Part shown: one piece after another, positions 25,146 through 50,274 of the stretch
Layout of the letters: each line of letters starts with the position of its first letter
How positions within the stretch are numbered: position 1 is the first letter of the stretch
DNA from: a virus
Taxonomy: Duplodnaviria > Caudoviricetes
Direction: 5' to 3' (one strand)
Length of the DNA stretch: 55,300 nt
Virus record (IMG/VR): IMGVR_UViG_3300014501_000022
Location: 1 to 55,300 of that record
The notes under the pieces: model-generated
Seen by the model: only the letters and a program-made list of their open reading frames with translations
Told to the model about the DNA's origin: nothing
Databases searched by the model: none
Position numbers and translations under genes: made by a program

Positions 25146-27344
25146 ATGTCATCAATTATCTATATTCGCAGTAACGGCGACGACGAAGAGCTAACAGCTG
25201 AACAGTTAGAGCTTATCCACCGATTTAGCGACCAAGCTAGAGTCTGGGCATACTTACTTTTAAAGGAAGCCGCTGGTATGTCAGAGACGGAAGGCGGCTC
25301 TACCGAGAAGTGGTTAGAGGTACGTCAGCAGTGGTTAGCCGCTAAGCAAGAACTAAAGGCACTCAACCCCGGTTATGGCGACGCTGTTGAGAAGGCTTGC
25401 CAAGAACAGTACGGTGCAAATTTAGAATCCCAGAAGACTCCTCTCCCTCCTCTTCCTCCCGACACAGATCCTAAGCAAGGCGAACAACTAAAGGCCGCAG
25501 GCGAAAAGGTTAAGAAGCTGTTCGCCGACCTATATCCAAACCGTAAGATGGAAGTAGGCTTTAGAGGTCCCTTCTTAACTAGAGAAGAGCAGAATGAGAT
25601 CCTTAGCTATCCTGATCCAGAGGTTGCGGAGCAGTGGCAGAAGCTAGTAGGCCTAGATCCTGCTAAGCTACCCGGCAGCATGGGTGCTCCCGCCGACGCT
25701 ACTCTCATCGATTTGGCTAGAGCCGTTGCTCACAACAAAGGCGTCGAGAAGGCATTACCCGGCGGACAGAGTCTAGAAGACTTCGCGAACGACGTAGTCC
25801 TAAGAAGTATTCGATCTTACAACCCCTACAAGGCGGAAGATACTCACACAGGTAGCCCCGGCTACGAAGGAGTTAAGGCAGCTATCGCTACCTACCTCTT
25901 TAGAGCGATGCAGAATGCTGTCAACACCGCCTTCACCTCTAACGCTGGTAGACAGCGCAGGAATGAGAACCCTATCTCCCTATCTCAACCTATTGGTAGC
26001 GAAGAGTCCTTAACAATCGAAGAGACTCTTGCTGAAGAGGGTAGAGAAGAAGGATGGGTGAAAGATCTCGTTGAACCGTTCAAGGCGTGGCTACAAGAGC
26101 GTGTTAACGATCGCTTTACTCAAAAGGCCGCCGATCAGTTACTACAAATTTATAAAGAGAAGTTCGTAGACGGCGAATCTCTTTCCGACATCGCACGACA
26201 CATCAATCAGGTATCCAAGAGAGATCGTAAGAAAGAATTAGCCTTCTTAAAGAAGTATAACGTTGATGTCTCTTCCTTCCCCGCAACCATCCAGCCTTAC
26301 GAAAGCGTTGCAGCCGACGCGGCTAAGCGCGGACAACTGATTGCTGACTTCTTTGCAAAGCTTAGAGCACAAGTTAAAGAGCTCGGGAAGTCTCCTGAAG
26401 CTGAGACAGCCAAAGAGAAGCTCAAGGCTATTGAAGAAGACTTCGCCAAGATCTCTACCCCTAACGCTGCCTACGTATCTAATCGCATCAGAGGCGACGG
26501 TCCTTACAAGGGACAGGGTCCTTCTATCATGGAGTTCCTACTCCAGCATCCCGACATTGCAGAAGAGTATAAGAAGATACAGCAGAAGAAGAAGCAGTCG
26601 GCCCTCGAGGACTTCTTAACTTCCATATCTACATTAAGGAAAGAAGGCGGCCTTAATTACAATCTTCTACGCAATAAGATTGAACAGAAGCTATCAAATG
26701 AGAATCCTCAACTGTTTACCGTATACACTTACCTATACGAGTCTAGCTTCTCCAACCCTGACACAGCCCGTCTAATGCGTCTGTCTCCTCCTCGTATCAC
26801 CGGTCTTAAGAAGAAGATAGTATCTACCTTACTCGATCTTCCGGAGATACAGAACTTCTTCCAGGAGAATGAGAATGGATCTATCTCCCCACTCCGCCGC
26901 TTTATCTACAACGAAGGGGATACCGTCCAGGTAATGTCTATCAAAGAGACGGGAGTTATCACTAGTATTCTTAGTGATTGGTATAACATCCGCCTAGATA
27001 ATGGTAACGACGTTCTAACGATTAAGGATGACATACAAAAGTATTGTACTTTAGTAGACTCTGCTAACAACGTATTATCACATTATTATAAGAGAGACGT
27101 TCTTTCCCCGCAATGTTATCTTTCGTTTGTCGGGGGATTAAAGCCTCAATTAGTAATTCTTGAATTACGCCCTGTAGACGAGTTAAAGACCGCCGCACGG
27201 TTGCATATTAACAACAGCCTAGTTGACATAACAGAGATTACGGAAAAGCTGCCAGACAACTTGTTGTCTATCTTGAAGGGGCACATAGGCGCAAGTGCTT
27301 CTCTAGATACTCCGTTTACATCTTTATTTGAAGAGGTTGAATAA
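25146..27344 (+). CDS. large mosaic protein with sigma-like regions, two HTHs and SH3/KOW-like module
   Basis: IATYLFRAMQNAV, ISLSQPIG, GESLSDIARHIN, SNPDTARLMRLSPPRIT, YNEGDTVQV...GVI. Confidence 0.7.
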   Translation: MSSIIYIRSNGDDEELTAEQLELIHRFSDQARVWAYLLLKEAAGMSETEGGSTEKWLEVRQQWLAAKQELKALNPGYGDAVEKACQEQYGANLESQKTPLPPLPPDTDPKQGEQLKAAGEKVKKLFADLYPNRKMEVGFRGPFLTREEQNEILSYPDPEVAEQWQKLVGLDPAKLPGSMGAPADATLIDLARAVAHNKGVEKALPGGQSLEDFANDVVLRSIRSYNPYKAEDTHTGSPGYEGVKAAIATYLFRAMQNAVNTAFTSNAGRQRRNENPISLSQPIGSEESLTIEETLAEEGREEGWVKDLVEPFKAWLQERVNDRFTQKAADQLLQIYKEKFVDGESLSDIARHINQVSKRDRKKELAFLKKYNVDVSSFPATIQPYESVAADAAKRGQLIADFFAKLRAQVKELGKSPEAETAKEKLKAIEEDFAKISTPNAAYVSNRIRGDGPYKGQGPSIMEFLLQHPDIAEEYKKIQQKKKQSALEDFLTSISTLRKEGGLNYNLLRNKIEQKLSNENPQLFTVYTYLYESSFSNPDTARLMRLSPPRITGLKKKIVSTLLDLPEIQNFFQENENGSISPLRRFIYNEGDTVQVMSIKETGVITSILSDWYNIRLDNGNDVLTIKDDIQKYCTLVDSANNVLSHYYKRDVLSPQCYLSFVGGLKPQLVILELRPVDELKTAARLHINNSLVDITEITEKLPDNLLSILKGHIGASASLDTPFTSLFEEVE

Positions 27345-28174: not shown

Positions 28175-28177
28175 ACT

Positions 28178-28882: not shown

Positions 28883-28898
28883 AAGTGTAATATTAGAT

Positions 28899-30270: not shown

Positions 30271-30580
30271 GTGTACTGAAAGATCCCATTACGATGGGGA
30301 TGGCGATAAATCGTTTTACGTGTGTTCCATATGTGAGTGTCCATTAGGAACGCACTGTTTTTATGTTCATTGCCCTTTATTAGAAGACGAACTAATTTGT
30401 ATTGACTGTTGTCAGAACGATGTACAGAAGGATGAAATCCTCAAGACGTTCAAAGAGTTAGGCGTAGAAACGACAAGAGAAAAGATAGAAGAGACTTGTA
30501 AGGGCTGTGGCAATAGATGTTTATTAACGGATCAAAACATTCCGCCAGACGAAGTAAAGGAAAGCCATGATAATAAATAG
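30263..30580 (+). CDS. Cys-rich zinc-binding protein
   Basis: CSICEC, HCP, CIDCC, CKGC. Confidence 0.6.
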   Translation: MSKCTERSHYDGDGDKSFYVCSICECPLGTHCFYVHCPLLEDELICIDCCQNDVQKDEILKTFKELGVETTREKIEETCKGCGNRCLLTDQNIPPDEVKESHDNK

Positions 30581-30806: not shown

Positions 30807-31039
30807 TGCCTACAGTAAAGTGCACGCGTTGCTACGTTCCTATCACTACTACATCGGAAATAAGTCCGAGCATGACTGCTTTCCTTTGTAACAACTGTGA
30901 TCTTAAATGGAAAGAAATAGCGAAGAAGATGAAGGGCCATTCCTACGACGACGATGTGCGCAAAGCGTTTATTCGCTTTGTCAACGATTTAACCAATCTA
31001 AGAAATACTACTTTAAGAGGACTTAACAATGTCAAATAA
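30806..31039 (+). CDS. zinc-ribbon protein
   Basis: CTRC...CNNC. Confidence 0.6.
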   Translation: MPTVKCTRCYVPITTTSEISPSMTAFLCNNCDLKWKEIAKKMKGHSYDDDVRKAFIRFVNDLTNLRNTTLRGLNNVK

Positions 31040-33149
31040 TGAAGATATCAATATCGGCGACATCCTACCCCCAAAGAAGGATGCTGCTGAGAAGTTCACA
31101 ACGGCGGAGACAAGAGTCCCAGGATTTCTTAAGCAGGCAGCTTACAGCCCTGATGAGACTCGCGAAGAGACCATCAAGAGAGACTGGGAGCGTTTGATCG
31201 TCGGGCTATCCGACTACGTTCTCGCGGAGCAGCTCACTGAGTATGAGCTACGGGGCATGGGGAAACCTGTAGCAGAGAACTACTCTATGTACTTCAATAC
31301 GACTCTTAAGGAAGTTAGAAAGAATCGTAAGAAGGGAGAACAGCGTCTGTTTAAATTTATTCCAGCACACAGTCAGCTTGATTGTGAAGCGTTCTTCGAA
31401 ACTGTTCATGAACAGAATGAGAAGGAGAAGGAAGCTCGTTTAAAAGCGATTGAACAGTATCCTCCTGCAGGCGTTGCGAAGATGGACTATAACGACGACG
31501 CACGCAAGGGGTTACAGAAGACCGCAGCCGCGTACTGTCAGACGTGTGGTAAGGATGCTAAGCCGGGAGATCCTGCTCACGACAAGCATACGGTAATTGA
31601 TCTACCCGCTGACCCCGATCCAAAAGAGGAAGCAGCTAAGCGTCAAAAGAGAATGGACGCACTAAAGAAAGAGGCCAGTGAGCCTTTCTGTTATTCCTGC
31701 AACAAGCGGCTAGCTTCAGAAGAGACTACTCTCCATGCTCGCAGGGGCCATAATATTATGGTAGAAGCGGTAGGTCCTCATACGAAGATGGACCCGAAGG
31801 AAGAAGAGGATCTTAAGAAGTCGCTAGAGAAGGTACTACCCGCTGCCGCACCTGCAGCGCCCGCCGCCGAGAAGGCACCCGCAGCAGAGCCAGCAAAGGA
31901 AGCGGTCTGGACCTCTCCTGACGCACAGCAAGGATCACAGACTAACCAAGAAGCAGCGGCATGCACCCATTGTAAGAATGATATCCCTGCGAAGAAAGGA
32001 TTAGTCCTACAGGACAAGCCTTACTGTATGCCTTGTCACGATGCGGGACACAGCACTCCCGCGAACGCAGCCTCTCCAGCAAAGCCTGCGCAGATGCCTC
32101 CAATGTCGACATCAACAGGTCCTATGACGAATCCTTTATTGCATAAGGAGGCTTCCGCCAAGTGGGAGAACGGAGCCCTGCTGAAAGCAAAACACAATGG
32201 GGTCGATGCTTGTATCGTCCATGTAAACAATGAAGACAAGACGTACGTCATCAAAGTAGAAGGCACAATGTACCCTAGCTACTACTCTTTTGATGACGCA
32301 CACGCTACGTTCAATGCTGTTAAGAAAACTGCCGCGGCCGTACCCGGAGCGGGAGCTGCCGGAGACGCTTCAGGTGTTTCAGGAAGCCCTGGCGGAGCAG
32401 TAACAGTCACGATCACTAACACTCACACAGACCACAACCCCGCAGAGACTAGCACGCGTACGGATCACAATCCCGCGAAGACAGGAGACTCTGGCGCTGG
32501 TGCCGATGCTGAAGTAGCTGCTCCAGTACCTGCAGCACCTGCAGCGGTAGCACCCGTAGTTGCCCCTGCACCTGCAGTAGCAGTAGTCCCTGCCGCTGAT
32601 GCTGACGCACCTGAGAAGGAGTCGGCCTTAGAAGATAAAGACGAGGATAAGGATAAGGATAAGGATAAGGATAAGCCCGCGGATAAGCCAGCAGCTAAAG
32701 CGGTAGCGCCCGCAGTCGTACCTGTACCCGCTAAAGCTGAAACGCCAACAGCACCTGCAGCGGTAGCACCCGTAGTTGCCCCTGCACCTGCCGCAGCTAA
32801 GCCCGCAGAGGTACCTGCCCCAGGCGCCGCAGTAGGAGCTGTACCTGCGCCTGACGCCAAGGGAGCTGGCGCAGCTGGCGACGCATCCGGTGTCTCTGGT
32901 TCACCGGGCGGAGCAGTCACCGTTACTATTACCAATACTCATACCGACCACAACCCTGCAGAAACGAGTACTCGTACAGATCATAATCCTGCAGAGACAG
33001 GTGATTCAGGAGCAGGAGCAGACGCAAAGGTTGCTCCAGCACCAGCTGCGCCGATGTCAGGCGGAGCGCATACACCTACCCCAATGCCTCCTGTCGCATT
33101 AGTTCCTGACGCCAAGGAAGCTAAGGAAAAGGGGAAAGGCTTAGCATAA
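31029..33149 (+). CDS. large modular protein with zinc fingers, Pro/Ala-rich linkers and a duplicated 55-aa block
   Basis: CQTC, CYSC and CTHC...CMPC modules; repeated KxA motifs; repeats at 32346 and 32862. Confidence 0.75.
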   Translation: MSNNEDINIGDILPPKKDAAEKFTTAETRVPGFLKQAAYSPDETREETIKRDWERLIVGLSDYVLAEQLTEYELRGMGKPVAENYSMYFNTTLKEVRKNRKKGEQRLFKFIPAHSQLDCEAFFETVHEQNEKEKEARLKAIEQYPPAGVAKMDYNDDARKGLQKTAAAYCQTCGKDAKPGDPAHDKHTVIDLPADPDPKEEAAKRQKRMDALKKEASEPFCYSCNKRLASEETTLHARRGHNIMVEAVGPHTKMDPKEEEDLKKSLEKVLPAAAPAAPAAEKAPAAEPAKEAVWTSPDAQQGSQTNQEAAACTHCKNDIPAKKGLVLQDKPYCMPCHDAGHSTPANAASPAKPAQMPPMSTSTGPMTNPLLHKEASAKWENGALLKAKHNGVDACIVHVNNEDKTYVIKVEGTMYPSYYSFDDAHATFNAVKKTAAAVPGAGAAGDASGVSGSPGGAVTVTITNTHTDHNPAETSTRTDHNPAKTGDSGAGADAEVAAPVPAAPAAVAPVVAPAPAVAVVPAADADAPEKESALEDKDEDKDKDKDKDKPADKPAAKAVAPAVVPVPAKAETPTAPAAVAPVVAPAPAAAKPAEVPAPGAAVGAVPAPDAKGAGAAGDASGVSGSPGGAVTVTITNTHTDHNPAETSTRTDHNPAETGDSGAGADAKVAPAPAAPMSGGAHTPTPMPPVALVPDAKEAKEKGKGLA
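32533..32791 (+). repeat. exact 43-bp direct repeat (32533-32575 and 32749-32791)
   Basis: CAGCACCTGCAGCGGTAGCACCCGTAGTTGCCCCTGCACCTGC occurs twice. Confidence 0.9.
32646..32675 (+). repeat. (GATAAG)5 coding microsatellite (DK repeat)
   Basis: Five tandem GATAAG units. Confidence 0.9.
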
Positions 33150-33343: not shown

Positions 33344-33760
33344 ATGATCACCAACATGCCTGAATATCAAAAGCAGTACTACGTCGAGAACAAAGAAAGA
33401 ATTAGTAAGTATAATTCTGTTCGCAATCGTACCTCAGAAGTAAAAACAAAAAGAAATGAGGCGGTTAAAGTACGCGCGCGAACAACTCCTCGTGGTCGCT
33501 TCAGTGTCATTAAAGGCAACGCTCGTTCGCGCGGCCGATCGTTCGATCTTACGTTCGAACAGTTTATGACCTTTTGGCAGAAGCCATGTATTGTCGGATG
33601 TAAGATCGAAACGATTGGACTAGATCGCATCGACAGCTCAAAGGGATATACGATAGATAATGTACGCCCAATGTGTTGGAAGCACAACAACATGAAGAAT
33701 AAGTTTTCAGACCAAGAGCTAATTGAGTTTGGGAAAGCATTGGATAGGCCATGTACGTAA
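33344..33760 (+). CDS. HNH-like (His-Me finger) endonuclease
   Basis: FDLTFEQF, PC, GLDRIDSSKGYTIDNVRPMC..HNNMK. Confidence 0.8.
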   Translation: MITNMPEYQKQYYVENKERISKYNSVRNRTSEVKTKRNEAVKVRARTTPRGRFSVIKGNARSRGRSFDLTFEQFMTFWQKPCIVGCKIETIGLDRIDSSKGYTIDNVRPMCWKHNNMKNKFSDQELIEFGKALDRPCT

Positions 33761-34419
33761 CGTATGGATCGAAAGATCTAAACCCTGACCCAGGTCCGCT
33801 ACCACCTCAGCAGCGATTCTTTTCCGATCGCGTGTGGTACGTACGGCAATTGGCTAAAGATGCCGGACAAGAGTTTGCTCTTATTACCGCGGAGTATGGA
33901 TTAGTCTTTGAACAGAACTTTATCCCTCCGGACAATTCAATCGTCGATATGGATAAAGTAGAAAGCCTAGGCAAGGAAACTGCCAAAGTCCTTAAGACGC
34001 ATGGTGCGAAAGATGTCGTCTTCTTTATCATCCCTGAAGAGTGGGGAGAAGGAGGAGCGGCAGATCGTTTCAACTTAGTCTTACAGTATGCATGCAATGC
34101 TGCAAACATTTCATATACAATGAAGCCTATCAAAGTACCTCTTGGACAACGTAATAAGGGAGAAGTGACTCCCGTACGTCCTGAGAATATACCGCCATTC
34201 GCACCCCAACTTGGAGGACCGTATTCAATGAATAAGAAAGCAGAGCCTACTACGTATCAATTGTCGGCTCAGGATGAAAATGGAATCTGGAAGCCAGTAC
34301 GCCAGTCCTCCTTCCTTCCTGACTTACAAATTAAAGCTCAATCGTTACTTAAAGAGTTCCCTGATAGAAAAGTATCTATCACAGCCGCTGTAGATTCTAA
34401 AACGGAATACCTTAGCTAA
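33751..34419 (+). CDS. DUF6884/YaaA-like domain protein
   Basis: YVTYGSK...FFSDRV...FALITAEYGLV resembles the ILSAxYGL motif; family call tentative. Confidence 0.5.
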   Translation: MYVTYGSKDLNPDPGPLPPQQRFFSDRVWYVRQLAKDAGQEFALITAEYGLVFEQNFIPPDNSIVDMDKVESLGKETAKVLKTHGAKDVVFFIIPEEWGEGGAADRFNLVLQYACNAANISYTMKPIKVPLGQRNKGEVTPVRPENIPPFAPQLGGPYSMNKKAEPTTYQLSAQDENGIWKPVRQSSFLPDLQIKAQSLLKEFPDRKVSITAAVDSKTEYLS

Positions 34420-37181
34420 TGGACGCAGCGGAAGCGAAAGCAGCCGCAGAGAAAGCAAGACCATTACTTAAGTCGCGTAATGATGCTCTAGCTTTAGTTC
34501 AGATCGGAGAGAATGTTACAGACATCTCCGACGCTAGACAGTTATGGGACAAATTCGGTAAGGCGGACTTTAATAAGTTTACTGAAGCAATCGCTGCGCT
34601 TAAGAAAGCTTTATTTAAAGAAAGAGATGAATATGGCATAGTCACCCCGTCGTGGGATCTAGAAAAGATTGATGCGGCGAAGAAAGCTTTTGATGAAGTA
34701 GCCGCGACTTTCCCAAGCGCATTACAAGCGGTCCTGCGTGTAAAGGTTCATCGCAATGATCCCGAAGCGAAGGTAGACAAGGCTGTCAGGGTGTACGAGA
34801 ACCATCTATTAGAGAAGAAAGAAACGCCCAAGCCTAAGGAAGTCAAAGAGCCAGCTCCCAAAGAAGACACAGGGGTTGTCCCTTACACTCCTCCGGAGCA
34901 GCCGAAGGGAAAGCCTATTACTGATAAGACAAAGTGGCCTACTAGTAAGAGTAGTCCTGGAGTAAAGAGACTACCTGCTCAGAAGAATCAAGAGGAATGG
35001 CTTAAGATGGCCCCGGCTATCTCTGAGATGCTACACTCACCTAACGGCGAAGGTAAGTCTTTAAGTGAAGATGATGTAGACAATATTTTAATTTATTTGG
35101 ATAATAACGACGCTTCCGAAGAAGAATTTTTAGCAGCAGCCCATAAGATCCTCCCTGAGTATTATGATGTTGAGAAGCTCGATAAAGAAATCAAAGAGCT
35201 TAAAGAGGATATGTCCGACAACGACAATAGCGCAAATGAGCTCGCGGAGCTTGAGCAGCAGCACAATCGCATTACTAAAATGGACGGTAACCTAAAGTTT
35301 ATTTATCAGCACTGGACACCCATGGAAACTAAATCAAATTTAATCAAGAACATTAATAGTAATCAGTTGACGCTCGGCGAAAGAAAGATTACTTTAATGA
35401 CGCCAGAGATAACCGCTTCTATCAAGTTCGCTTCTACCACAGAAGCTTGTGAGAAGTTTCTTGAGCTTAATACTGAAGCAGACGTAGAAGCTACGTTCAG
35501 TGTAGCAGCTCTACTCGCTTTGGAGAAAGAAGCTGCTGGTGGAATGGAATCTCTTATAAAGCCAGACACGAAGGGACCTAGCGCCGAGGAAGAGAAGCCG
35601 CTAGTCACTGCAATGGTTGAGTGGCTCAATGCTTCTAACATACAAGGTAGCGAAGCTGACGTTGAAAAGAAGGCAGCCGACTATCTAGCCTCGAAGGCTC
35701 CTGACTACGATGAAGCGAACGTTCAACGCGTTGCGCGTAAGGTTTACGCGGAGTGGACAGCCTCTAAGAAGGTTCCCGGAGCAGTTGGTCAGGAAGGTAA
35801 AGCAGGAATGGGGGTAGCTAACATTGATGGTACCGGCGTATTCGTCGAGCCTCAACGCGGCGATACCAACGTTCAGAATGAATCTCCTACAGGTGATCAA
35901 CGCGGTAACGTTAGAAAAGAAGCTATGCTCTCTTTCAGATCTTCTCTTGAAGGAGAAGTTAAAACCAGTGATGATCTTAATCTGTTCGCAACACTTGATG
36001 TAGTTAGTTTTGTAGAACACATTCCCGGGCATAAGAATTCAAAGGGCGAAGCTGCTCCGTGGGTAATCAAGAGCCACGAGACTCAGTCGATCCTATCTTC
36101 ACATGCAACAGAAGGAGAAGCAAAGAAGCATCTCCAACAGATGCATATGTTTAAATCAATGAAAGGAGCTTCTATGAATCCGGGTGACCTGGCCATACTA
36201 AATACACAAGTCGGCGAACTTCTAGAAGGCACCGAAGTAGAAGTTGTCGTCATCGCAGATGACTCCGCATCCTTTGTCTCTGGTACTACTTCTGGAATCA
36301 CCAAGCTAGCTAACCTAGATAAGGTCACTCTTGAGAAGTATCCTTGGGATAATGACGGACTCGCATTTAAATTTTGTTTAGGCGATAGAGTTAAGGTAGG
36401 TTCGATTGAACATAATGGAGAGTCTTGGAAAGGCGAAGAGGGAACTGTCCGGGAGAAAGTTGTTCTTGCTACTAACGGTGAAGTTGAGCGTTTCTATCTT
36501 GTTGAGCTTGATTGTGGTGGCAATGAAACATTACCTGAGGAATCATTAAGCAAGGCAGGGAAGAAGAAGGAAGCCGCATTGAATGCCGAAGAGCTGACCA
36601 AAGTCGCGGTTATCAAGCCTAACTTCGACGCTGTTCAAGAGTTCCTTAAGAGTTATGACAACCCGCCGTCCGTAGTTACGACTGACGATATCGAACATTG
36701 GATGGGCGACGAGAAGAACAATTATCAGTATTCAAAGAAAGATCTTAAAGAGTTTGTAAAGTATCTTGAGTCCGCTCACGTTGAAGTACGCGTCCCTGCT
36801 AAGAAGAAGGTACCAGAAGTACTTCCTGGTGAAGCAGGTGAGATGGGTAACACTGAAGCGGAAGAGGCAGCGGAGTTCGCGCCACCTAAAGAGATGCTGA
36901 AGGAAGCCGTCAAGTATAAGTCGATCAGCCCAGACGGTAAGTCTACTACTGAGAAGGATATAGAACAGGACATGGGCGCTGAGTTTGATACCGACGACCC
37001 AACGCAGCCTGGACAGAAAGTTAAGTGGACCCGTGAGAGTAGCCTCGACGTATGCTCCAAGTGCGCCGGACAAGGTAGTCTTCCGTGTCCTTGTATGGAC
37101 GGAGAGCTATGGTTATCTACTTCGTGCAACAAGTGTAAGGACGAAGGGTCTGTTCCTTGTAGTTGCAAACAACCCGCATAA
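34419..37181 (+). CDS. large modular protein (SH3-like modules, C-terminal CxxCxGxG zinc finger)
   Basis: FCLGDRVKV...GTV...YLVELD; WVIKSHE...EAKKHLQQMHMFK; CSKCAGQG...CNKCKDEG; several KEA motifs. Confidence 0.75.
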   Translation: MDAAEAKAAAEKARPLLKSRNDALALVQIGENVTDISDARQLWDKFGKADFNKFTEAIAALKKALFKERDEYGIVTPSWDLEKIDAAKKAFDEVAATFPSALQAVLRVKVHRNDPEAKVDKAVRVYENHLLEKKETPKPKEVKEPAPKEDTGVVPYTPPEQPKGKPITDKTKWPTSKSSPGVKRLPAQKNQEEWLKMAPAISEMLHSPNGEGKSLSEDDVDNILIYLDNNDASEEEFLAAAHKILPEYYDVEKLDKEIKELKEDMSDNDNSANELAELEQQHNRITKMDGNLKFIYQHWTPMETKSNLIKNINSNQLTLGERKITLMTPEITASIKFASTTEACEKFLELNTEADVEATFSVAALLALEKEAAGGMESLIKPDTKGPSAEEEKPLVTAMVEWLNASNIQGSEADVEKKAADYLASKAPDYDEANVQRVARKVYAEWTASKKVPGAVGQEGKAGMGVANIDGTGVFVEPQRGDTNVQNESPTGDQRGNVRKEAMLSFRSSLEGEVKTSDDLNLFATLDVVSFVEHIPGHKNSKGEAAPWVIKSHETQSILSSHATEGEAKKHLQQMHMFKSMKGASMNPGDLAILNTQVGELLEGTEVEVVVIADDSASFVSGTTSGITKLANLDKVTLEKYPWDNDGLAFKFCLGDRVKVGSIEHNGESWKGEEGTVREKVVLATNGEVERFYLVELDCGGNETLPEESLSKAGKKKEAALNAEELTKVAVIKPNFDAVQEFLKSYDNPPSVVTTDDIEHWMGDEKNNYQYSKKDLKEFVKYLESAHVEVRVPAKKKVPEVLPGEAGEMGNTEAEEAAEFAPPKEMLKEAVKYKSISPDGKSTTEKDIEQDMGAEFDTDDPTQPGQKVKWTRESSLDVCSKCAGQGSLPCPCMDGELWLSTSCNKCKDEGSVPCSCKQPA

Positions 37182-39733: not shown

Positions 39734-40197
39734 TGACTGAATCTGCAATGCTAGTCGTAAACCAGAAGAGAAAATGTGTAACAGTTAAGTACAGTGGTAT
39801 ATGTATTCAATGTGGCGATCTTTACTACACTGAACGACTTAGAAGTAATCATTGTTCCCTTAAGTGTTCTCATACAGGGTCAAGTTCAAATAGATGGAAA
39901 GGCGGTAGATATAAAAGAAGTGGTTACGTTTTTGTCGGAGGTAACCATAATCACCCGCGAAATAACAACGGATATGTTTTTGAACATATTCTTACGATGG
40001 AGAAGCACTTAGGACGTTATCTTAAGTCCGGCGAAAATGTTCATCATAAGAATGGAATACGCAGTGACAATAGAATTAAAAATTTGGAACTGTGGGTTAA
40101 ACCGCAGCTTGCCGGACAGCGAGTAAAAGACTTGGTTGCTTTTGTTGTCGAGAATTACAGCAAAGACTTGCGTCTATTACTTAAGAAGTATCATTAA
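39733..40197 (+). mobile_element. HNH homing endonuclease
   Basis: WKGGR, YVFEHILTMEKHLGR, VHHKNGIRSDNRIKNLEL. Confidence 0.88.
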
Positions 40198-40673: not shown

Positions 40674-41438
40674 GTGGGGTGTACAGTGCGAAGATTTTTT
40701 GAAGTGCCCGCACACGTCGCAATATATGTACTAGCGTTCCTGTTAGCAGCAGTACAAGCGTACGATATGTACGCTAGACCACTGCCTCTAGCAAGTGTTA
40801 TCGAAGTCGCTAACAGTAGTGTTGTTGCGATGGATTGCATTTCTGTTGTACAAACGCCGGGTCACGTTGAAGCACTGCCCACTGGAATAAAGTATATACC
40901 TGGAAAAGAAATAAAGCACAATATCCTTACCGCTGGGTTTATTTCTTCGCCTAGATACATTACTACAGTAGCGCACGGGATTGAAGCTTGTAAAGGTAAT
41001 GGGAGTCCCTATAAAGTTAAGATGCAAGTCATGTTTCGTAATAATCCCAAAACATACTTCGCCAAAGTAGTCCGCTATAATCGATTACACGACGTAGCTA
41101 TCCTACAGTTAGTAGGTAGGGTACCTTACGTAGAGCCTCTAGAGATCCTAACAGAAGCCCCGCCGGCAGGTACTCACGTTATCGCTTTGGGTCATCCTCA
41201 GTTTCTTTTCTGGAGTGCCGCTGAGGGTATCGTGAGCGCAGATAGATGGTCGACTGATCCTCTCATGCACGTCATCCAAGTCAGCTGTCCTATCAATCAC
41301 GGTAACAGCGGCGGTCCTGTTATAAATGACAAAGGACAAGTTGTAGGCATTACTTCTTTTTATATAGATAACCCTTCATTAGGTTTTATCGTTGCAGGAG
41401 ATTTCGTTAAAGCAGTAGCATACGGACTACACCCTTAA
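40674..41438 (+). CDS. trypsin-like serine protease with N-terminal signal/TM
   Basis: TVAH, DVAIL, INHGNSGGPV triad motifs; start uncertain. Confidence 0.88.
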   Translation: MGCTVRRFFEVPAHVAIYVLAFLLAAVQAYDMYARPLPLASVIEVANSSVVAMDCISVVQTPGHVEALPTGIKYIPGKEIKHNILTAGFISSPRYITTVAHGIEACKGNGSPYKVKMQVMFRNNPKTYFAKVVRYNRLHDVAILQLVGRVPYVEPLEILTEAPPAGTHVIALGHPQFLFWSAAEGIVSADRWSTDPLMHVIQVSCPINHGNSGGPVINDKGQVVGITSFYIDNPSLGFIVAGDFVKAVAYGLHP

Positions 41439-44400
41439 TGGAATACGATCTAAAGAACCCTTCAATATCATTCTGCATCAGTGACTATCCTACTGATGTA
41501 CAGAATTCTCTACAGTCCTGCCTCGATATCAACGGCTTCGTCGCTAACGAACCTAAATTTAGACAGATCGCTGCGGATAATGTTGCGGAGTTGATTAACG
41601 ATAACGCACGTCCTCTAAAGCTAATTCGCAAGCTTCAGACCGTTATTAAGGGCGGGAAGATGCTTAACGTTGAAAGAGATCGTGAAATGAATCAGTTCGG
41701 TCTCAACTTTGCGCTTAACAAATACGAATTCTCCCTTGATCCCGTCCCGGGTCAGCCTGATCTAGAGAAAACCGGAACAAAGATTCTTGCAATCATTGGT
41801 ATCTCCAGAGAGGATACTTCCTACATTACTGCCTACGAAGACGGCGATACTTTCATTTATGCGGGGAAGATGCCCGTCGACGCATGCTCCTACCGTCCCG
41901 TAGAGTTACTGAAGTCGTCAAAGCTGATTGAAAAAGTAGGAGATATAACCTACGTAACTCCTAGAAGAATTAAAGTTAGCCACGGCTCCCTACAATATTC
42001 TTTCCAGGACGCTTTTTCTTTTGCCGACAAAGTAACCAAGGTTGGAAGCAGACTATCCGCTATCACGTCTAATCCAAAGTTTGTTGAACTTACGGAAGAG
42101 TCCGCATCCATAGATCAATTAACAGCTGCTCCTATTGAAGAAGAAGCAAAGATGCCTTCTTTAAAAGAGATTCAACATATTGTTAAAGATGAAGCCTGGC
42201 AGAAGCTTAGAGAGGATCTAAGTTGGACTAAAGGTAACATCGGTAGTAGTCTGCGTCGCTTACGCCGCTACATGGGTGAAGCTCCTTCTAGAAAGAGACA
42301 AGTTAGAGTACTCAACTTGCTCAATGGCGTCGCTCGTGGCGGTATTATGACCGACGACATCTTACGGATGCAGAAGAGACTCCGTAAGAGACTAGGAGTA
42401 GGAGTTCCTAAGGAAGCAGCAAAGAAGATGCGCCAGTGCGCTTGGTGTAACAAGAACCTTGATACGGGGAAGAAGGAAGAGCACAACCCGATGGCGACAC
42501 ACGGTATCTGCCGACCTATCTGCCCTGAAGCAAAGAAACAAGGCTTCACCGACGAAATGATGAAGGATCCTAAGAAGAAATCCGCATTAGGTCCAGGAGA
42601 ATTGACAGCAGGCTTCATGCCTTCTCTCCCGTCACAGCCGTTCTTCGGTCAACACGGCGACGGCGATCATGGCGATTACCCATATCCCATGAACACGTTG
42701 TACCCCAAGATCAGTCCAGAAGATGCTGATGGAGGCGGTCAAGACGCTACAGAAGCGTATACCCACGTGTGGGATAAGATAGATCCTAAGCGTTTGATCA
42801 AGCTCCTAAAGAATTATAAGCCTTTGTCGAAGGAAGACGTAGGGGATTCACAAGAGATTCATAAAGAAGCAATTCTAAATATGGATCCGGATATCGCTTT
42901 CCGATTTTACGTTCCACGATTTACAATAACGATTGACAAGCCTGAGACGATTGCTGGGGAGTATGAAGCAACTCGTATCGGCAATAAGCCTGAAGGAGCG
43001 GGACGCTTACAGGGCGTAACCGAAGCTACAGAGGCAACCCCTGAAGGTAAGACGCCCGCAGAGAAGGTTCAAGAGGGTAAGACACCTTCAACATCAATCC
43101 CGCAAGAGGGCGAAAGCTCTCCTATCTTTCTACAGCACCCTCAGGACGTGCGTAAGGAGAAAGGTCGCGCCGACCGTAAGCCTCTAACCCCGCAGTCCGA
43201 TGTTATCTACCAAGTTAAGTATGTAAGGGGAGATGCGGGAGCTAAGAATACCGTTGTTGGTTACTTTAATGTTAACGACTTTCTTTCCCGCTTCGTTAAG
43301 AAGGGAGAGGAGAACAAAGGTCTTTCTGAATGGTTGAAGAAGAAACTTGAGCGGCGCGCCAGCGCAATAGGTGTTCTGTTTAAGCTAACGCGCCCGGATG
43401 TTCCCCTAGAGCAACGTCTGTCGTGGGGAACGCGCTTACAGCAAAGCTACGTCGCTAGTGACTGGGACCAAGCTTACAAAGACTTGGCGAGCGCGGGTAC
43501 TCCTGCTGATGAGAAAGAAAAGGAGCAGCGCGTACAGCTACTCAAGAAGATAGTAGGGTTCAACGAAGAAACTCTTCTCGAGGAGGGACGCTACAAAGAA
43601 CTTCTCGCCCTCGTGAAGAAGTACGATATCGTTCCTAAAGGATGGAATGATGACGAAAAGCTTGCGCAAGAGGCAGCGATTCTTGGTGGAATAGGATTAG
43701 CTAAGCCCTCTAATAGTGATTACGCTGCACAGGTTAACTTAATCTTAGATGGTAACGAACGCTACCCAAACGGTGGTAGCGTTGAAACTAAGCGTACGGT
43801 TCTGCGTGACGCGGATATAGACCGCGTATTAGAGTTCACCCTGTCGAAGAAGTTCAAGGAGCAGCCTTATGCAGTCCAGGCTGCGGCAGTAAGACGCCTA
43901 GAGGTCGCTGGAAAGCCTTCTTCCGAAACAAGGGAAGGGAGTGAAGAGGCCCTATGGGCTGTATGGGGAAACAAAGAACTACCTTCCTCCCTGCGCCGAG
44001 ATGTTCTAAACAAGCTAGTCTTAGCTTATGGTTATGGTAAAGGCGGATTAAACGTAAGCCCTGAAGGACGTTTTAAGGCGACGAAGGATCTATTATCTGA
44101 AGCGGGAGACGATAAAGATGTAGACATCCGCGCTCAGGCCTACCGCTTAATGGTAGACCCTAGCGTTGATTGCTTACCCTGGACCGCAAAGGGAGAGCTC
44201 GTCTATAGTCCTGCATTAGCAAAAGAGAAGAGAGAACAGCCCACCACCGACATCCCTGACTGGATGATTACTCAGCTTGTCAATGAAAAAGATGTCAATG
44301 CGAAGAAGCTTGGCTACGATATTCTTGAGAAGCTCCCTAAGGATTTAGTTGTCGAAGAGGCTCCTCCGGTATTAAATAGGGATCTTAAGATAGAAAGGAA

Positions 44401-47400
44401 CGGAAAGTATTCGTTCTCTTCCGATATTCTTCCGGGCTTCCGCCGCTTGATCATAGCGGCTCTAACTGATTCTAACCCGAGAGCTCGCGCATCTGTCCGA
44501 AGTCACTTCGGTCTTCCCTCAGAGACTACACTACTTGCTCCCGAGAATAAGGATACGGAAGTAGTCCAGCCCTCTGCTAAGGATTATATCTTTCATGCTC
44601 GAGTCGCTCTTAACCAGAATAAGGTTGAGGATGCTGAGAAGCAACTTGCTTCAGCAACGCATGCGCGCGATGCAGAGAACTATAAGGAAGAGATTGACGC
44701 TCTCAAGAAGAGAATTGTTGATGTCCGCGAACATTCTAAAGATAGAGAAGAGAGAGAAGATCGAATAGCTCAGTTGCAAGAAGCTCTAATGACCAAGCAC
44801 CCCGTCCTTAGAGAAATTGTTAAGCTGGCTGCTTTCTTAGATTGGGCTGCGAAGCTTAAGTTCCAAACGGCATTTAGAGATTTGTCCGTTAAGAATAAAG
44901 AAGCAATCGTTTCTTTCTTAGCGAAAGATGAAAAATGGTTTAATCAGTGGCACGCAACTGTATTAGGTACTGGCCCTGCCGTTAAAGACATCGAAGAGGA
45001 TCCTCGCAGGAAAGAGGATCGTCGAAAGAAAGACGATAGAAGAAAGGAGCCGGAACCAGAACCAGAACCAGAACCAGAGAAGCCCCGTGAACGTCGTCGG
45101 GATGATCCGTTTACTCCTGATGAGGAAGCTTTCGGTAAGCAGGGATCACCCCTTGGTAAGATTGAATTAACGTCTCGCCAACCTCCGACAACATGGCCCC
45201 TTGAGAATCCTCAAGTAGGGTATGGCTCTGCTGTGCCCATTGGCTCTCAAGATAGCCGAGGTACTGATGAACTAATGTTGAAGGACGTTAGGATGTACTT
45301 CGGGCGTCCAGAAGGTAAGTGGCGTTCTATCTTAAATAAGATTTGGAAGAATATCTTTGATGATCAGAACGTTCAAGAGGAAGAAGAACTAGGTACCCAC
45401 AAGGAGATGCTTCACAAGGAAGCAGCTGAACAACTCCCCAGAGTCCCACCTAATAGCCGCGAAGAAGCTCTAAAGTATCTACAAGGTAACGAGCAGGAAG
45501 CGTACCAGGCTATAACTTTCTTTGGACGCGAGGGCGACAAGGATGGTTTGATTGCGGCCGTCAATGCCTTTAAAAATCCGGGCGAATTTAACAACAAGCA
45601 GGGGCTTCAGAAGATTCTTCAGGTAGCTGTGGAACATAATCTTCCGGAGGTCGTTGAGGCAGTATTCAATATCCCTTCGACAGGTAAGACATCAAAGTGG
45701 GATATCCATAGCGACGCCATAGCAGCCTTCTATCGATTGAAAGATGTAGATGCATTAGGTAAGATTTTATTTACTCCGTGGTACCCTCACGCGGTTAAGT
45801 ATCTTGTAGACCTAGGACTTGCGTCAAGCCTTAAGAAAGTATACCGTTCTAGTAATGACAACCCTGGTTTACAACGCGCGATCATCTTGAACTTAGGCGA
45901 GGCCGACCCTGAGTTCATGGCAGAAGCTTTAAAAAATCCGAATGCTGAAGTAAGACAACAGGCGCTTAAGTGGCTTGGAGATCATCATAAGAAGTATGAC
46001 GTACTCAAGGAACACGTAAAGAACGAGAAGGACCCTAAGGCGAAAGCAGAGCTTGAGAAGTTCTTAGCGCTAGCTAATGAAGGACCTGTTGCAGAAGTTC
46101 TCGAGCATATGGATCCTGAAGAGCAGATGAGCAAGATAACAGCTCTTACTAAGACTGCTGCCGATGCATTCACCAAGTGGGATAACTACCCTGAGATCCG
46201 TAAACAAGTTCTCGGACAACATGGTCGCCGCTACGGTATCAGCTCCTTTAACGAATGGAAACAAGTCCAACCCGAAGTAGATACAGAGATCAGAGATGCG
46301 ATGGGGGAATACCCCTCCATGGAAAAAGGAAAGGAAGCCCTACGTGATTTAGAAAAGGTCGCTGAGAAACTTCCGGACGCTACAAAGAGAATCACTTATC
46401 TCAAGGCATGGATTGAAGAAGCGAGAGAGAAATATAAAATAAACAAACAACTCCTCGAGCGTGAGCGACAACTTAGTAATATGACAGAGGAGTCTCGGAC
46501 CGAACTCGAGAACGACCTATCAGAACTAAAAACAAAGATCGATAACGCTCAGAAGAACCTTGATAAAGCAATGGTTGATATCAAGGGTGATCTTGATTTT
46601 AGAATAAGTCAGCTGCAACTTCTAGAGAGATCCACTACGTTCCGTGAGTCTCTTATGGAAACTATTAAGCAGGATGACTCCTTTAAGAAGGAATTTGGCA
46701 GCGGGAATCACACGTGGCAGGACTACCAAGCGTATCTAAAGACATTCGAGAAGGAGCTACCTCACAAGGACGCTAAGCTCCCCGCTGAGGGTCTACGGGC
46801 TATCGAGCGTTCTAAAGAAAAGCTAGCTTGGGGATACACAGAGCCACTTCGTAAGCAGTATGCTCAAGAGGAGAACCTAGCGGTTAAACGTCTCCAAGAG
46901 CTACAGCCTTTCTATGAACGTCTAGGAGATCCGGAGAAGGATCCCCGCTTAGCTGAGTTCGACAAAAAGATTAAAGAGTATAAGAAGCTCGCAAAGCAAT
47001 GGTATAAGATGTCGGGTACTATCGCACCTTACGTTGTGATTAGCGATGATGAAACAAAGAGATATCATATCTCCCCGGCAATCTGGCTAGCACCTAATAA
47101 GTCTCCGGCGTTACCTGAGTATGGTACAAGTAAGAGACTTGTACCAGAACAGCTTGCCGAGCTTCGCTCTCCCTGGACAGATCTTATCGAAGAGACGCAA
47201 GCAGAGAAGATTAAGCTACACAATGATTTACTTCGAGAAGTAGCTAAGAAGCTTCCTGAAAAGGGAAAGGACCTTCTGGTGGAACATCTTCAACACGTGA
47301 AGAAGGCGGAAGCTATCCTTAGTCACTTACAGTCCGCTGGAGTAGGTTTTGATGGTGGCGAACTTAAATATATCGATATGGGTAAGAAGTTAGAAGAGAG

Positions 47401-47788
47401 TAAGAAAAGATACGACGAAGATCGTATGAAACTTCTAAAGCGCCTTGAGATTCTTAATAAGGTTAAAGAGAGTAACAGGCCCGACGATCAGAAAGAGTAT
47501 ATCCGAATCAAGAAAGAACTAGCCGACTTCATGGGTATGTATGGTATTCCTCCTGTGTCTGATACGCCTAACGGTCAACTCAAGAAGCAGTACCTGTATG
47601 ATAGATGGAAGAGCCCAAGACTAAGAGGTCCTCAAGATGTTCCGTTGACAGTGTCTCCTGAAGAGTCCGGTGCTTATAAGGGTGGCGGAGAGTCTACGGA
47701 AGAAGAGCGGAAGAGAGTTATGGACGAGATTAACAGACGTCGTGAGGAATACGGTCCAGCCAAAGATGAAAGCGGGGAACTACTATAA
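41438..47788 (+). CDS. 2116-aa mosaic protein with HEAT-like repeats, zinc finger and coiled coil
   Basis: CAWC...HGICRPIC; DKDVDIRAQAY, LTDSNPRARASV, LKNPNAEVRQQAL; (EP)n linker. Confidence 0.75.
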   Translation: MEYDLKNPSISFCISDYPTDVQNSLQSCLDINGFVANEPKFRQIAADNVAELINDNARPLKLIRKLQTVIKGGKMLNVERDREMNQFGLNFALNKYEFSLDPVPGQPDLEKTGTKILAIIGISREDTSYITAYEDGDTFIYAGKMPVDACSYRPVELLKSSKLIEKVGDITYVTPRRIKVSHGSLQYSFQDAFSFADKVTKVGSRLSAITSNPKFVELTEESASIDQLTAAPIEEEAKMPSLKEIQHIVKDEAWQKLREDLSWTKGNIGSSLRRLRRYMGEAPSRKRQVRVLNLLNGVARGGIMTDDILRMQKRLRKRLGVGVPKEAAKKMRQCAWCNKNLDTGKKEEHNPMATHGICRPICPEAKKQGFTDEMMKDPKKKSALGPGELTAGFMPSLPSQPFFGQHGDGDHGDYPYPMNTLYPKISPEDADGGGQDATEAYTHVWDKIDPKRLIKLLKNYKPLSKEDVGDSQEIHKEAILNMDPDIAFRFYVPRFTITIDKPETIAGEYEATRIGNKPEGAGRLQGVTEATEATPEGKTPAEKVQEGKTPSTSIPQEGESSPIFLQHPQDVRKEKGRADRKPLTPQSDVIYQVKYVRGDAGAKNTVVGYFNVNDFLSRFVKKGEENKGLSEWLKKKLERRASAIGVLFKLTRPDVPLEQRLSWGTRLQQSYVASDWDQAYKDLASAGTPADEKEKEQRVQLLKKIVGFNEETLLEEGRYKELLALVKKYDIVPKGWNDDEKLAQEAAILGGIGLAKPSNSDYAAQVNLILDGNERYPNGGSVETKRTVLRDADIDRVLEFTLSKKFKEQPYAVQAAAVRRLEVAGKPSSETREGSEEALWAVWGNKELPSSLRRDVLNKLVLAYGYGKGGLNVSPEGRFKATKDLLSEAGDDKDVDIRAQAYRLMVDPSVDCLPWTAKGELVYSPALAKEKREQPTTDIPDWMITQLVNEKDVNAKKLGYDILEKLPKDLVVEEAPPVLNRDLKIERNGKYSFSSDILPGFRRLIIAALTDSNPRARASVRSHFGLPSETTLLAPENKDTEVVQPSAKDYIFHARVALNQNKVEDAEKQLASATHARDAENYKEEIDALKKRIVDVREHSKDREEREDRIAQLQEALMTKHPVLREIVKLAAFLDWAAKLKFQTAFRDLSVKNKEAIVSFLAKDEKWFNQWHATVLGTGPAVKDIEEDPRRKEDRRKKDDRRKEPEPEPEPEPEKPRERRRDDPFTPDEEAFGKQGSPLGKIELTSRQPPTTWPLENPQVGYGSAVPIGSQDSRGTDELMLKDVRMYFGRPEGKWRSILNKIWKNIFDDQNVQEEEELGTHKEMLHKEAAEQLPRVPPNSREEALKYLQGNEQEAYQAITFFGREGDKDGLIAAVNAFKNPGEFNNKQGLQKILQVAVEHNLPEVVEAVFNIPSTGKTSKWDIHSDAIAAFYRLKDVDALGKILFTPWYPHAVKYLVDLGLASSLKKVYRSSNDNPGLQRAIILNLGEADPEFMAEALKNPNAEVRQQALKWLGDHHKKYDVLKEHVKNEKDPKAKAELEKFLALANEGPVAEVLEHMDPEEQMSKITALTKTAADAFTKWDNYPEIRKQVLGQHGRRYGISSFNEWKQVQPEVDTEIRDAMGEYPSMEKGKEALRDLEKVAEKLPDATKRITYLKAWIEEAREKYKINKQLLERERQLSNMTEESRTELENDLSELKTKIDNAQKNLDKAMVDIKGDLDFRISQLQLLERSTTFRESLMETIKQDDSFKKEFGSGNHTWQDYQAYLKTFEKELPHKDAKLPAEGLRAIERSKEKLAWGYTEPLRKQYAQEENLAVKRLQELQPFYERLGDPEKDPRLAEFDKKIKEYKKLAKQWYKMSGTIAPYVVISDDETKRYHISPAIWLAPNKSPALPEYGTSKRLVPEQLAELRSPWTDLIEETQAEKIKLHNDLLREVAKKLPEKGKDLLVEHLQHVKKAEAILSHLQSAGVGFDGGELKYIDMGKKLEESKKRYDEDRMKLLKRLEILNKVKESNRPDDQKEYIRIKKELADFMGMYGIPPVSDTPNGQLKKQYLYDRWKSPRLRGPQDVPLTVSPEESGAYKGGGESTEEERKRVMDEINRRREEYGPAKDESGELL

Positions 47789-50274
47789 TGGATGACAACG
47801 AGATCGAGAAGAAGGCCGAACCTATCGATGCACAGGATGGAGAGGACTTTACTAAAGAACTCGCTAGTCGCGACGACTACGGTGAAGAGTCTCTCCGTGG
47901 TGACCCCAGCGCTGCGTACCATGACTACTTAGGTGACAGTGCTAACTTCAGTGGCTTTCCTCAGCCTGTCAACCAACAAGAGATATGGAATAGATTTAAA
48001 GACTACGTTAACAAGAAGAAGGAAAACCTACATGAGGATAAGAATAAGGTAGGTAAGGAGCACATGGAAGAGATAGGAGAAGGCTACTGGGATAAGAAGA
48101 CTCCCTACATAGCTACGGATACTCCCGCACAATTTATGGCAATGCCTGCAATGAAGATTGGTAAGTTAGACGTAGAAGCGGATGAACAGCAGCCTACTCC
48201 TCCCTCCGAGCCCACTCCTGACCTTGGGGGATCTGTAATGGGAGAACCTCCTGCTGCAGAAGAGAACCGTAAGAAAGAACCGCCAGTTGAACTCCCAGCC
48301 AAAAATTTTGAGCCCCCTCAAGAAAAAATCATGGACGCCGACAAGTTCTGGTCGTCGGCAGGGAATCAGGCTACTGTTCACATCGCAAATCTTCCCAAGC
48401 CAAAAAATATCGGTGATGAAACACTCTTTACAGGTAACGTCTCCTTCTCCGCATTCAGCAGTCTAGGCGGGGCGACTCTCGCTGGAAAGGTTAAAGCTGT
48501 CCGCGGCGGTAATGGAAAAGAGTGCGTGAGCCTTATCCTGGAGACTGATGAGTTGATGACTCTCGTTATGAACATCGCTCAGAAGTACGTAGACTCCAAG
48601 TCGCGAGATGAAGATGTTGTTATGAGAGATGTTCAGGAAGGACTACCCCTCATCTTCCGAAAAATTTTTGAAACAATTAAAGCAAAGAGAAACGACTTAG
48701 TATGGTCTACAGGTCCTGCAAAAGAAAACGCCGACGAGTACTCTCCTCTAGTAACGTACTTGCCTGAGGGAGGTATCGCGAAAGCGTTCGGTAAGTCTCT
48801 GCGCGAAGCACCTGCTCCTAAGCCAGGAGAGTCGGCGAAGACTGTTCCTTATCCTACGGAAGAGCTACACGCTCGTAAGCCTTTAGAGGGTAAAGACGCC
48901 CAGGGATTAATGAATGCTATCCGGGCACAAGAGAAGGTTTTACTGGGAGGTAATTCAAGTGAGCATCTTGAAAAGCCCCACTACCTCAAAGACAATAACA
49001 TTATAAGACAGTTCGTTATTAAAATACCTGAGGACAAGTTTCACAAAAGGGAAGAGGGTATGTTCGCCTTCTTGAAAATGTCGGAAGTAGAAAAGATTAG
49101 TCCTGAGGCTGCCGCACTTATTAAAGCCTCAGATGGGGAAGGAACTGACGGAGAGAGCTTCCATTTCTTTTATGTTCCAAAGAAAGGGGACATGGAAGAT
49201 GATACAGTAGCCATCGAGAATAAGCTTCTCACGAACAAGTATATCCTTTCTAAGGTACAGAACATCTATAAGCGATTTGGCGGAGGAACACCTCAGCAAT
49301 TGTTTAAAGCGATCGCAGGAGATCTCGATCTATCTCCTTCCGCTGTCGCTGTATGGTTCATAGAACTGTTCGATAAGCTTACCCCTACTGTGAGGGAGAA
49401 GGCGAAGAAGGCTACCGGTATAGGTATGGAGAAGCTAGCCTATCCAACAGACGCCTGGGCCGGACCGACATTAGAGCAGGTGGGTGCCCTTGTTGGACCC
49501 GACAAAGCTATGCTAGCCTCTGAGTGGGCAAGCTCCCTAGCCGACAAGTTAAACTATACTTCCTACCCGCCGACATTCCCTACGTTGGTTGGAGGACCTT
49601 CAGATCTAAAGAAGCTTGGCGCTCTTGGCCTTACGGATGAGCAAGTAGAGCGAAGGAATCGCATTATAGAGAAGTATAGAGAGCCAGCAACAGAGATGTT
49701 GCATAGTTTAGTAACCAACATTTACGACAGTGATGTCGCCGGTGGAGGCGCTAACGCTGGCCCCCTAAATCCGGAAGCTGAAGAAATTGGTCAGCTGGCA
49801 GAGGACGTCCTCTTAGAAATGTTCGAGGAGTTACCAACGACCATCGCCGACGAAGACTTCTATAAAGAACTAAAGAGTCGTTTGTTTACGACTCAGAAGA
49901 TGATTGAACGTCATCACAATAAGAAGATGCCTAGCAACAAGTCTAAGTTCACGGACGTAATGAACACACCAACTGTCCCTCTTGATACAGGTGAGATCGA
50001 AGATCCGATCAACTATCTCTCAGCGACGTTGCATAAGAAAGCTTTACAGATCGACGACGCTGTTCAGATCAGTCCGGAGTTCCCACGTAGAGAGTTTGCT
50101 GGACGCATGGGAAAAGTTTGTGACATTAAAGGGGACATTTATATGTGCCCAGAGCATGGACCAGAGCCGCTCATCCATTACCTTATTGATATAGGGGACG
50201 GCGAGACGCATCGAGAGGGAACGCTCACCTGGGTCGTAGATGGTGAGTTTATGCCCGCAGGATCCACTAACTAA
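47788..50274 (+). CDS. 828-aa modular protein with C-terminal SH3/KOW-like module
   Basis: LHKKA followed by LQIDDAVQI...GRMGKV...YLIDI. Confidence 0.7.
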   Translation: MDDNEIEKKAEPIDAQDGEDFTKELASRDDYGEESLRGDPSAAYHDYLGDSANFSGFPQPVNQQEIWNRFKDYVNKKKENLHEDKNKVGKEHMEEIGEGYWDKKTPYIATDTPAQFMAMPAMKIGKLDVEADEQQPTPPSEPTPDLGGSVMGEPPAAEENRKKEPPVELPAKNFEPPQEKIMDADKFWSSAGNQATVHIANLPKPKNIGDETLFTGNVSFSAFSSLGGATLAGKVKAVRGGNGKECVSLILETDELMTLVMNIAQKYVDSKSRDEDVVMRDVQEGLPLIFRKIFETIKAKRNDLVWSTGPAKENADEYSPLVTYLPEGGIAKAFGKSLREAPAPKPGESAKTVPYPTEELHARKPLEGKDAQGLMNAIRAQEKVLLGGNSSEHLEKPHYLKDNNIIRQFVIKIPEDKFHKREEGMFAFLKMSEVEKISPEAAALIKASDGEGTDGESFHFFYVPKKGDMEDDTVAIENKLLTNKYILSKVQNIYKRFGGGTPQQLFKAIAGDLDLSPSAVAVWFIELFDKLTPTVREKAKKATGIGMEKLAYPTDAWAGPTLEQVGALVGPDKAMLASEWASSLADKLNYTSYPPTFPTLVGGPSDLKKLGALGLTDEQVERRNRIIEKYREPATEMLHSLVTNIYDSDVAGGGANAGPLNPEAEEIGQLAEDVLLEMFEELPTTIADEDFYKELKSRLFTTQKMIERHHNKKMPSNKSKFTDVMNTPTVPLDTGEIEDPINYLSATLHKKALQIDDAVQISPEFPRREFAGRMGKVCDIKGDIYMCPEHGPEPLIHYLIDIGDGETHREGTLTWVVDGEFMPAGSTN

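Follow-up and report, generated by a model that had tools for sequence, protein, structure and literature searches.

What is marked by a short peptide motif that recurs through the large proteins of a tailed phage: a place where they are cut, a peptide that joins or docks their parts, or nothing beyond their composition? The question is raised by the IMG/VR record IMGVR_UViG_3300014501_000022 (Duplodnaviria; Caudoviricetes), a stretch of 55,300 nt referred to here as the window. This 55.3-kb window is the entire contig, its gene content fits part of a phage genome, and it is a fragment of a novel giant phage. Between nt 25 and 50 kb it carries a one-strand block of tightly packed genes that code for large multi-module proteins, with 1-base overlaps at five gene junctions. 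Six open reading frames (ORFs) of this block, encoding 732, 706, 920, 557, 2116 and 828 amino acids (aa), repeatedly contain the sequence hydrophobic-x-Lys-(Glu or Thr/Gln/Lys/Val)-Ala, usually followed by Ala/Ser/Val, which would mark the joints of swappable modules. Comparison with relatives indicates that this motif is genuine and conserved and that it marks the junctions between modules, and we give an even chance to its being a protease-site code at those junctions.

All 18 motif instances listed in the original prediction are found at the positions it gave, which are those of the Lys codons. In the strict form [LMVI]xK[ETQKVL]A, and with whole-protein shuffles (2000 runs) as background, the motif occurs 21 times in the six ORFs (5859 aa in all) against 4.1 +/- 2.0 expected, a count reached in 0 of 2000 shuffles, and 5 times against 4.9 expected in a comparison set made up of the 40 other ORFs of the window (9326 aa), while the longer form KEA[AVSMI] gives 12 against 1.3 and 0 against 0.9 in the two sets, respectively; because the motif classes were picked post hoc, these enrichment figures and their z-scores inflate significance. 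An excess over shuffled controls had been foreseen, and the strict motif has it. The bare KxA, which had been named as the signal itself, is not enriched (58 against 51.5 in the six ORFs; 35 against 47.9 in the 40 others).

These counts could be read as a functionless product of amino acid composition and post hoc definition. The proteins are rich in Lys, Glu and Ala, the classes were chosen after sight of the sequences, some matches are unconserved, and KEA by itself (15 against 4.9 expected in the six ORFs; 5 against 3.3 in the 40 others) would fail correction over all 8000 tripeptides. The order of the three residues speaks against such an origin. In an in-frame control on the six ORFs, with frames set by hand from coordinates, KEA occurs 15 times and the five other orderings 5-7 times each (KAE 5, EKA 6, EAK 6, AKE 7, AEK 7), so that local richness in Lys, Glu and Ala is not the cause of the excess. 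Homologue conservation and indel boundaries, set out below, argue against composition independently of the window counts, and we consider this explanation very improbable. A signal in the DNA, such as a recombination hotspot or a regulatory word that is merely read as K-E-A, would be another way to generate the pattern, and the word AARGARGC is indeed over-represented (25 against 10.7), with all matches on the + strand. The codons at the motif vary, however, with Lys written as AAG or AAA and Glu as GAA or GAG in all four combinations; there is thus no fixed DNA word, and the signal lies at the level of the protein. Moreover, 15 of the 17 AARGARGC matches within the six ORFs are in frame, and the residues are kept where protein identity is only 35-55%. 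A DNA-level signal is, in our judgement, the least credible of the explanations considered.

The homologue evidence is stronger than the motif statistics of the window; conservation and indel boundaries among homologues provide support independent of those counts. The giant 2116-aa ORF has ten metagenome homologues (1979-2700 aa) and the 920-aa ORF seven. The viral genome of a complete relative (G001, locus L001) is 210,348 bp long, carries terminal repeats and shares synteny with the window throughout the block, and further loci come from metagenome contigs; the homologue alignments were judged by eye. The giant ORF (41438..47788, + strand, as are all six ORFs and both protease genes described here) has a weak match to HEAT_2. 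In a seven-sequence alignment of this ORF at 35-55% identity, K325, K476 and A478 are invariant in 7/7. The site of Lys 325 spans nt 42404-42418 and that of Lys 476 spans nt 42857-42871; besides these two conserved sites there are two that are partly conserved, at Lys 1327 and Lys 1572.

The 920-aa ORF (34419..37181) has motif sites at Lys 370, 500, 717, 728 and 828, and its further matches at Lys 417 and Lys 629 look like chance or structural ones. In a seven-sequence alignment, K828-E829-A830 is present in every sequence within an otherwise variable linker, the V-R-K-E-A site in six, and the site at Lys 728 takes the form hydrophobic-x-K-E-A-V in five. Across the homologues several sites keep the Lys and the Ala with variable flanks, and conserved sites may have Thr, Val, Lys, Gln, Leu or Ile in place of the Glu of the motif. 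At the C-terminus of this ORF (37050-37181) invariant Cys pairs form a C-x-x-C-x-G-x-G pattern, which recalls the zinc-finger domain of DnaJ.

The complete relative also has orthologs of the 732-, 706- and 828-aa ORFs, and wherever a site could be compared it is retained there. The 732-aa ORF (25146..27344) has one strict motif, L-L-K-E-A (aa 38-42, nt 25257-25271), that ends a conserved N-terminal segment of about 40 aa; the ortholog has L-L-K-E-A at the same position and variable sequence downstream. This ORF has no Pfam or PHROG family, and a sigma-factor-like region suspected in it gained no support in a search at E up to 5. The 706-aa ORF (31029..33149) consists of small Cys-rich modules and Pro/Ala-rich repeats with six motif sites, at nt 31125, 31512, 31662, 31890, 32139 and 32319 (the first base of the residue two before the Lys). 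Three of them are retained in the complete relative, as F-I-K-E-A, L-K-K-E-A and V-Y-K-E-A, and the Cys module past nt 31662 is found in the window and not in that ortholog. This ORF also contains a 188-nt direct repeat (32346-32533 and 32862-33049, 73% identity) and arrays of Pro/Ala-rich 49-nt units, which lie in the most GC-rich part of the window. In the 828-aa ORF (47788..50274), M-E-K-L-A (nt 49426-49440) and L-H-K-K-A (nt 50029-50043) are retained in position in the complete relative as L-E-K-V-A and I-E-K-R-A, and L-H-K-K-A stands directly before a C-terminal small beta-barrel-like module. A compact module beginning right after the motif had been proposed from five examples, and all five bear it out.

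The strongest line for a role at junctions is that of the indel boundaries. Where a homologue in a related uncultured phage has a module inserted in its lineage alone, the motif in most cases stands at the borders of the insert. In the giant ORF the stretch after K325 is hypervariable, with different modules inserted in different phages; the precomputed Pfam entries for the inserts are Pol X thumb, KOW, DNA ligase C-terminal domain and HAD-type phosphatase, and in two homologues (P0007 and P0008) the motif precedes ligase-like, HAD-like and KOW-like inserts. Two homologues of the 920-aa ORF (P0019 and P0020) have lineage-specific inserts that are motif-bounded at both ends, P0022 has two Cys-rich modules with hydrophobic-N-K-E-A-A between and after them, and P0018 has M-K-K-E-A before the second Cys module. 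In five of the seven 920-aa ORF homologues an 8-residue insertion is close to the motif itself (I-L-K-E-A-A-S or a near variant), at a place where the window has no motif. In the 557-aa ORF (37182..38855) about 195 aa form an insert specific to the window; its last residues are M-K-K-V-A (nt 38037-38051), and a conserved small beta-barrel-like module follows directly. The ortholog of this ORF at another locus (L006) has a different insert elsewhere, of 400 aa, which opens at F-Y-K-E-A where K-E-G has become K-E-A, and whose two parts are separated by L-A-K-E-A-A. The borders are not always perfect: several right-hand ones read K-x-(G/S) or have no hydrophobic residue, and in P0021 an insert is flanked on both sides by poor copies of the motif. 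Modules have been gained and lost independently among the homologues, leaving several unrelated domains per polypeptide. That the motif recurs at module joints, as first suggested from the window, is thus seen both in the conserved Lys and Ala and in the indel boundaries.

A small domain of the 920-aa ORF (aa ~528-585, window 35985-36188) has several hundred protein matches in a 1.8-billion library and no Pfam family. Many of these matches are stand-alone proteins of 50-90 aa, which fits modules able to work alone.

If such modules are separated by cutting, the motif should lie in linkers, as the original prediction expected. Two AlphaFold models were available, of the 920-aa ORF and of giant ORF residues 1-700, both poor and built from shallow alignments. 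The first has a mean predicted local distance difference test score (pLDDT) of 53.6, with 441 of 920 residues (48%) below 50; the second has a mean of 50.0, with 370 of 700 residues (53%) below 50. Six of the seven sites of the 920-aa ORF (Lys 370, 500, 629, 717, 728 and 828) fall in stretches of pLDDT <50; K417 does not. In the model of the giant ORF, K325 lies in a dip that separates a helical domain from a small module, and K476 immediately ahead of a modelled module. Since about half of each model is of low confidence, the models agree only weakly with a linker location of the sites.

On present sequence evidence a cleavage site is the most economical reading of the motif, and the most likely one. 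A phage-encoded protease would recognise it and cut the proteins into separate modules. A cut after Lys would place this residue at P1 and the hydrophobic one at P3; a cut after Ala would give Ala at P1 and Ala/Ser at P1'. Two protease genes lie within the block, and both families named in the original prediction, papain-like at 27344 and trypsin-like at 40674, score above the Pfam cut-offs. The papain-like cysteine protease (Peptidase_C1; 27344..28174) matches PF00112 at 4e-14 (53.6 bits, cut-off 20.7) and the peptidase family phrog_16701 at 1e-20; the start of its gene and the stop of the 732-aa ORF have one base in common. Its catalytic-type Cys in G-S-C-T-A-N and His in G-G-H-A-V are both retained in the syntenic ortholog of the complete relative, at 71% identity. 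The serine protease (40674..41438) matches Trypsin_2 at 5e-20 (73.2 bits, cut-off 27.6) and has HtrA and DegS as its best solved relatives. H101, D140 and S212 are invariant in five sequences; the protein has no PDZ match and ends about 20 residues past the protease domain. Its stop likewise shares a single base with the start of the giant ORF, so that each protease gene overlaps one motif-bearing gene, and it stands directly upstream of the giant gene in all five loci with upstream DNA.

A third candidate would lie outside the window, in a head module like that of the complete relative. In that genome, about 100 kb from the block, are a terminase, a portal, a 968-aa protease-fusion protein and a major head protein. 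The 968-aa protein has an N-terminal head maturation protease domain (phrog_18299, 5e-15); it has no match to the Pfam S78 model, a search with S77 likewise gave none, with its controls silent too, and a solved-structure search gave nothing. The domain is about 33% identical to that of Myrna gp97 and relatives, and the gene order is that of gp96-gp99 of Myrna, a cluster C mycobacteriophage: portal-sized protein, protease fusion, small protein, major head protein. The fusion is 1211 aa long in Myrna and 968 aa in the relative, with a long C-terminal part. This likeness concerns the head module of the relative, outside the window; by eye, Myrna gp97 has loose K-K-A or K-T-A matches alone, and our literature search found no published cleavage specificity for Myrna-type head proteases. 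Four strict matches noted by eye in the K/E/A-rich 968-aa sequence are too near expectation and are not counted as evidence. The portal protein of the relative (L004 9611-12541) is 976 aa long and has an endonuclease-like insert (phrog_4645, aa 257-399) that looks like an intein.

As a rough division among the possible cutters, a Myrna-type head-maturation protease encoded outside the fragment would be our first choice, at somewhat less than an even chance. The HtrA-like protease is possible, if doubtful, the papain-like protease is a fainter candidate still, and a host enzyme seems very unlikely.

Several observations weigh against cutting. No gene split at a motif was seen; the one split found is in the complete relative, where the counterpart of the 828-aa ORF is two genes, of 211 and 652 aa (L001 16554-20076), and it is not at a motif. 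Three strict matches, K417 in the 920-aa ORF and K1129 and K1154 in the giant ORF, are unconserved and are probably chance or structural matches; K417 is moreover modelled inside a confident helix, and the placing of six of seven sites in low-confidence stretches, at about p = 0.05, is weakly informative. Near its N-terminus the serine protease carries a conserved hydrophobic stretch that resembles the membrane anchor of DegS, so that the enzyme might act outside the cytoplasm. In the 968-aa fusion protein of the complete relative the sequence between the protease and scaffold-like parts is V-A-K-E-P, without the Ala. A candidate cleavable N-terminal motif in the capsid protein of that genome, L-Q-K-I-A, was rejected: it belongs to a conserved block and distant homologues do not keep it. 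The motif is, finally, not depleted in the 40 other ORFs of the window.

This last point also favours the principal alternative, in which the motif serves for linking or docking, is left uncut, and the proteins act as intact multi-domain chains. It might bind a common partner, for assembly, packaging or localisation, or it might be a helix-ending linker preferred in this lineage. Beyond the six large ORFs the window has five in-frame K-E-A, four of which lie in the C-terminal tails of the ribonucleotide reductase (2625-2665) and of a Metallophos-family phosphoesterase (14599-14640), two in each tail, 7 residues apart and with a hydrophobic residue before each. Cutting at these pairs is hard to rationalise and would seem harmful, and they suit a docking or linker role better. 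The 920-aa ORF likewise has tandem sites 11 residues apart, and L-E-K-E-A-A is modelled at a helix end. There is precedent as well: delivery without cutting is described for N4-type virion polymerases and for several polyvalent proteins of plasmids (PMC5512222). Yet a pure linker would need no invariant Lys and Ala with a hydrophobic residue at -2 across 35-55% identity, every newly inserted module brings its own copy as if each joint needed processing, and two protease genes are embedded in the block. We regard an uncut linker or docking peptide as possible though unlikely, and retain cleavage at the joints as the preferred reading.

The prohead proteases of T4 and phiKZ cleave at short motifs ending in Glu. 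The closest experimentally known system is the head-protease processing of giant phages (SPN3US gp245, phiKZ, T4 gp21). In SPN3US the head protease gp245 cuts after A-X-E, at 14 sites spread over nine head proteins; it favours Val at P4 and Ser at P1', and all identified cuts except the protease's own yield N-terminal propeptides (PMC10052503). The two systems have in common a short motif present in many copies in several large proteins of one phage, and the complete relative, like SPN3US-type phages, encodes a head-maturation protease domain. Unlike the SPN3US sites, those of the window phage have a conserved Lys and Ala and no C-terminal Glu at P1; they lie at internal joints of swappable modules.

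The closest concept is that of the polyvalent protein (Iyer et al. 2017, PMC5512222), which joins 2-15 unrelated domains predicted to be released by peptidases, the peptidase, mostly a zincin-like domain, sitting within the polypeptide. The likeness lies in several unrelated domains per polypeptide and in giant-ORF homologues with varying enzyme-type inserts. Unlike in those proteins, however, no peptidase domain was found inside the six ORFs, and the proteases have genes of their own next to them. No hallmark domain named by that paper was found here, and the passages of it consulted describe no conserved junction motif. In Pfam and PHROG scans none of the six ORFs matched a peptidase family, four of them having been re-searched at E up to 5, and none matched any other family except for the weak HEAT_2 match and phrog_5663 (function unknown).

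Beyond phages, structural or core polyproteins are cut at short motifs by a viral protease in African swine fever virus, whose polyproteins pp220 and pp62 are cut by a cysteine protease, and in the herpesviruses, whose assemblin site, hydrophobic-x-Ala then Ser, resembles the version of our motif with Ala at P1. Hosts, viruses and protease families are unrelated to those considered here, and the comparison is one of analogy only. Our literature searches, supplements aside, found no description of this motif or of a Lys/Ala-type site for a phage head protease. The departures from known systems are the Lys/Ala motif, the sites at internal module joints, and the proteases as separate neighbouring genes.

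Taken further, these departures could mean a family of giant tailed phages with a true polyprotein strategy and a private cleavage code, separate from capsid maturation. The 25-kb block would then be an operon of swappable cargo-module chains, including DNA-repair-type enzymes in relatives, with joints tagged by hydrophobic-x-K-E-A-(A/S) and with dedicated HtrA-like and papain-like proteases to free the modules. We think this extended version improbable, if not negligibly so.

The window encodes a ribonucleotide reductase, RecA, the GTP cyclohydrolase FolE2, a uracil-DNA-glycosylase/family A polymerase fusion, a primase, SSB, a sigma-like factor, QueC- and QueE-like genes and HNH endonucleases, and there is no capsid, portal or terminase gene among its genes. 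The QueC-like (5762-6445), QueE-like (9691-10581) and FolE2 (20653-21624) genes suggest 7-deazaguanine modification of the phage DNA. The polymerase fusion (17588-19999) is one 803-aa protein that combines a uracil-DNA glycosylase, a 3'-5' exonuclease and a family A DNA polymerase, and its nearest deposited phages are just ~31-33% identical. Among 50,697 deposited phages the giant ORF has no relative. The 828-aa ORF had no match when IMG/VR was scanned with this one protein, and neither it nor the N-terminal 325 aa of the giant ORF had a usable hit in the ESM Atlas. The block is broken up at 33344-33760 and at 39733-40197 by two genes of HNH or endonuclease VII-like type. At the syntenic locus of the complete relative no ORF stands in either place, among the ORFs of at least 120 aa listed there, and the two genes look like mobile insertions. 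A different, Cys-rich ORF of 310 aa follows the giant gene in that genome.

If the motif is a cutting signal, it would provide a simple rule by which the unannotatable giant ORFs of this lineage could be split into working units, and it would define a new phage protease specificity. A specific protease and its tag could also serve as a paired tool. For the phages themselves, cutting at the motif would mean that the cargo of tailed phages can evolve through the insertion of modules that bring their own cleavage tag.

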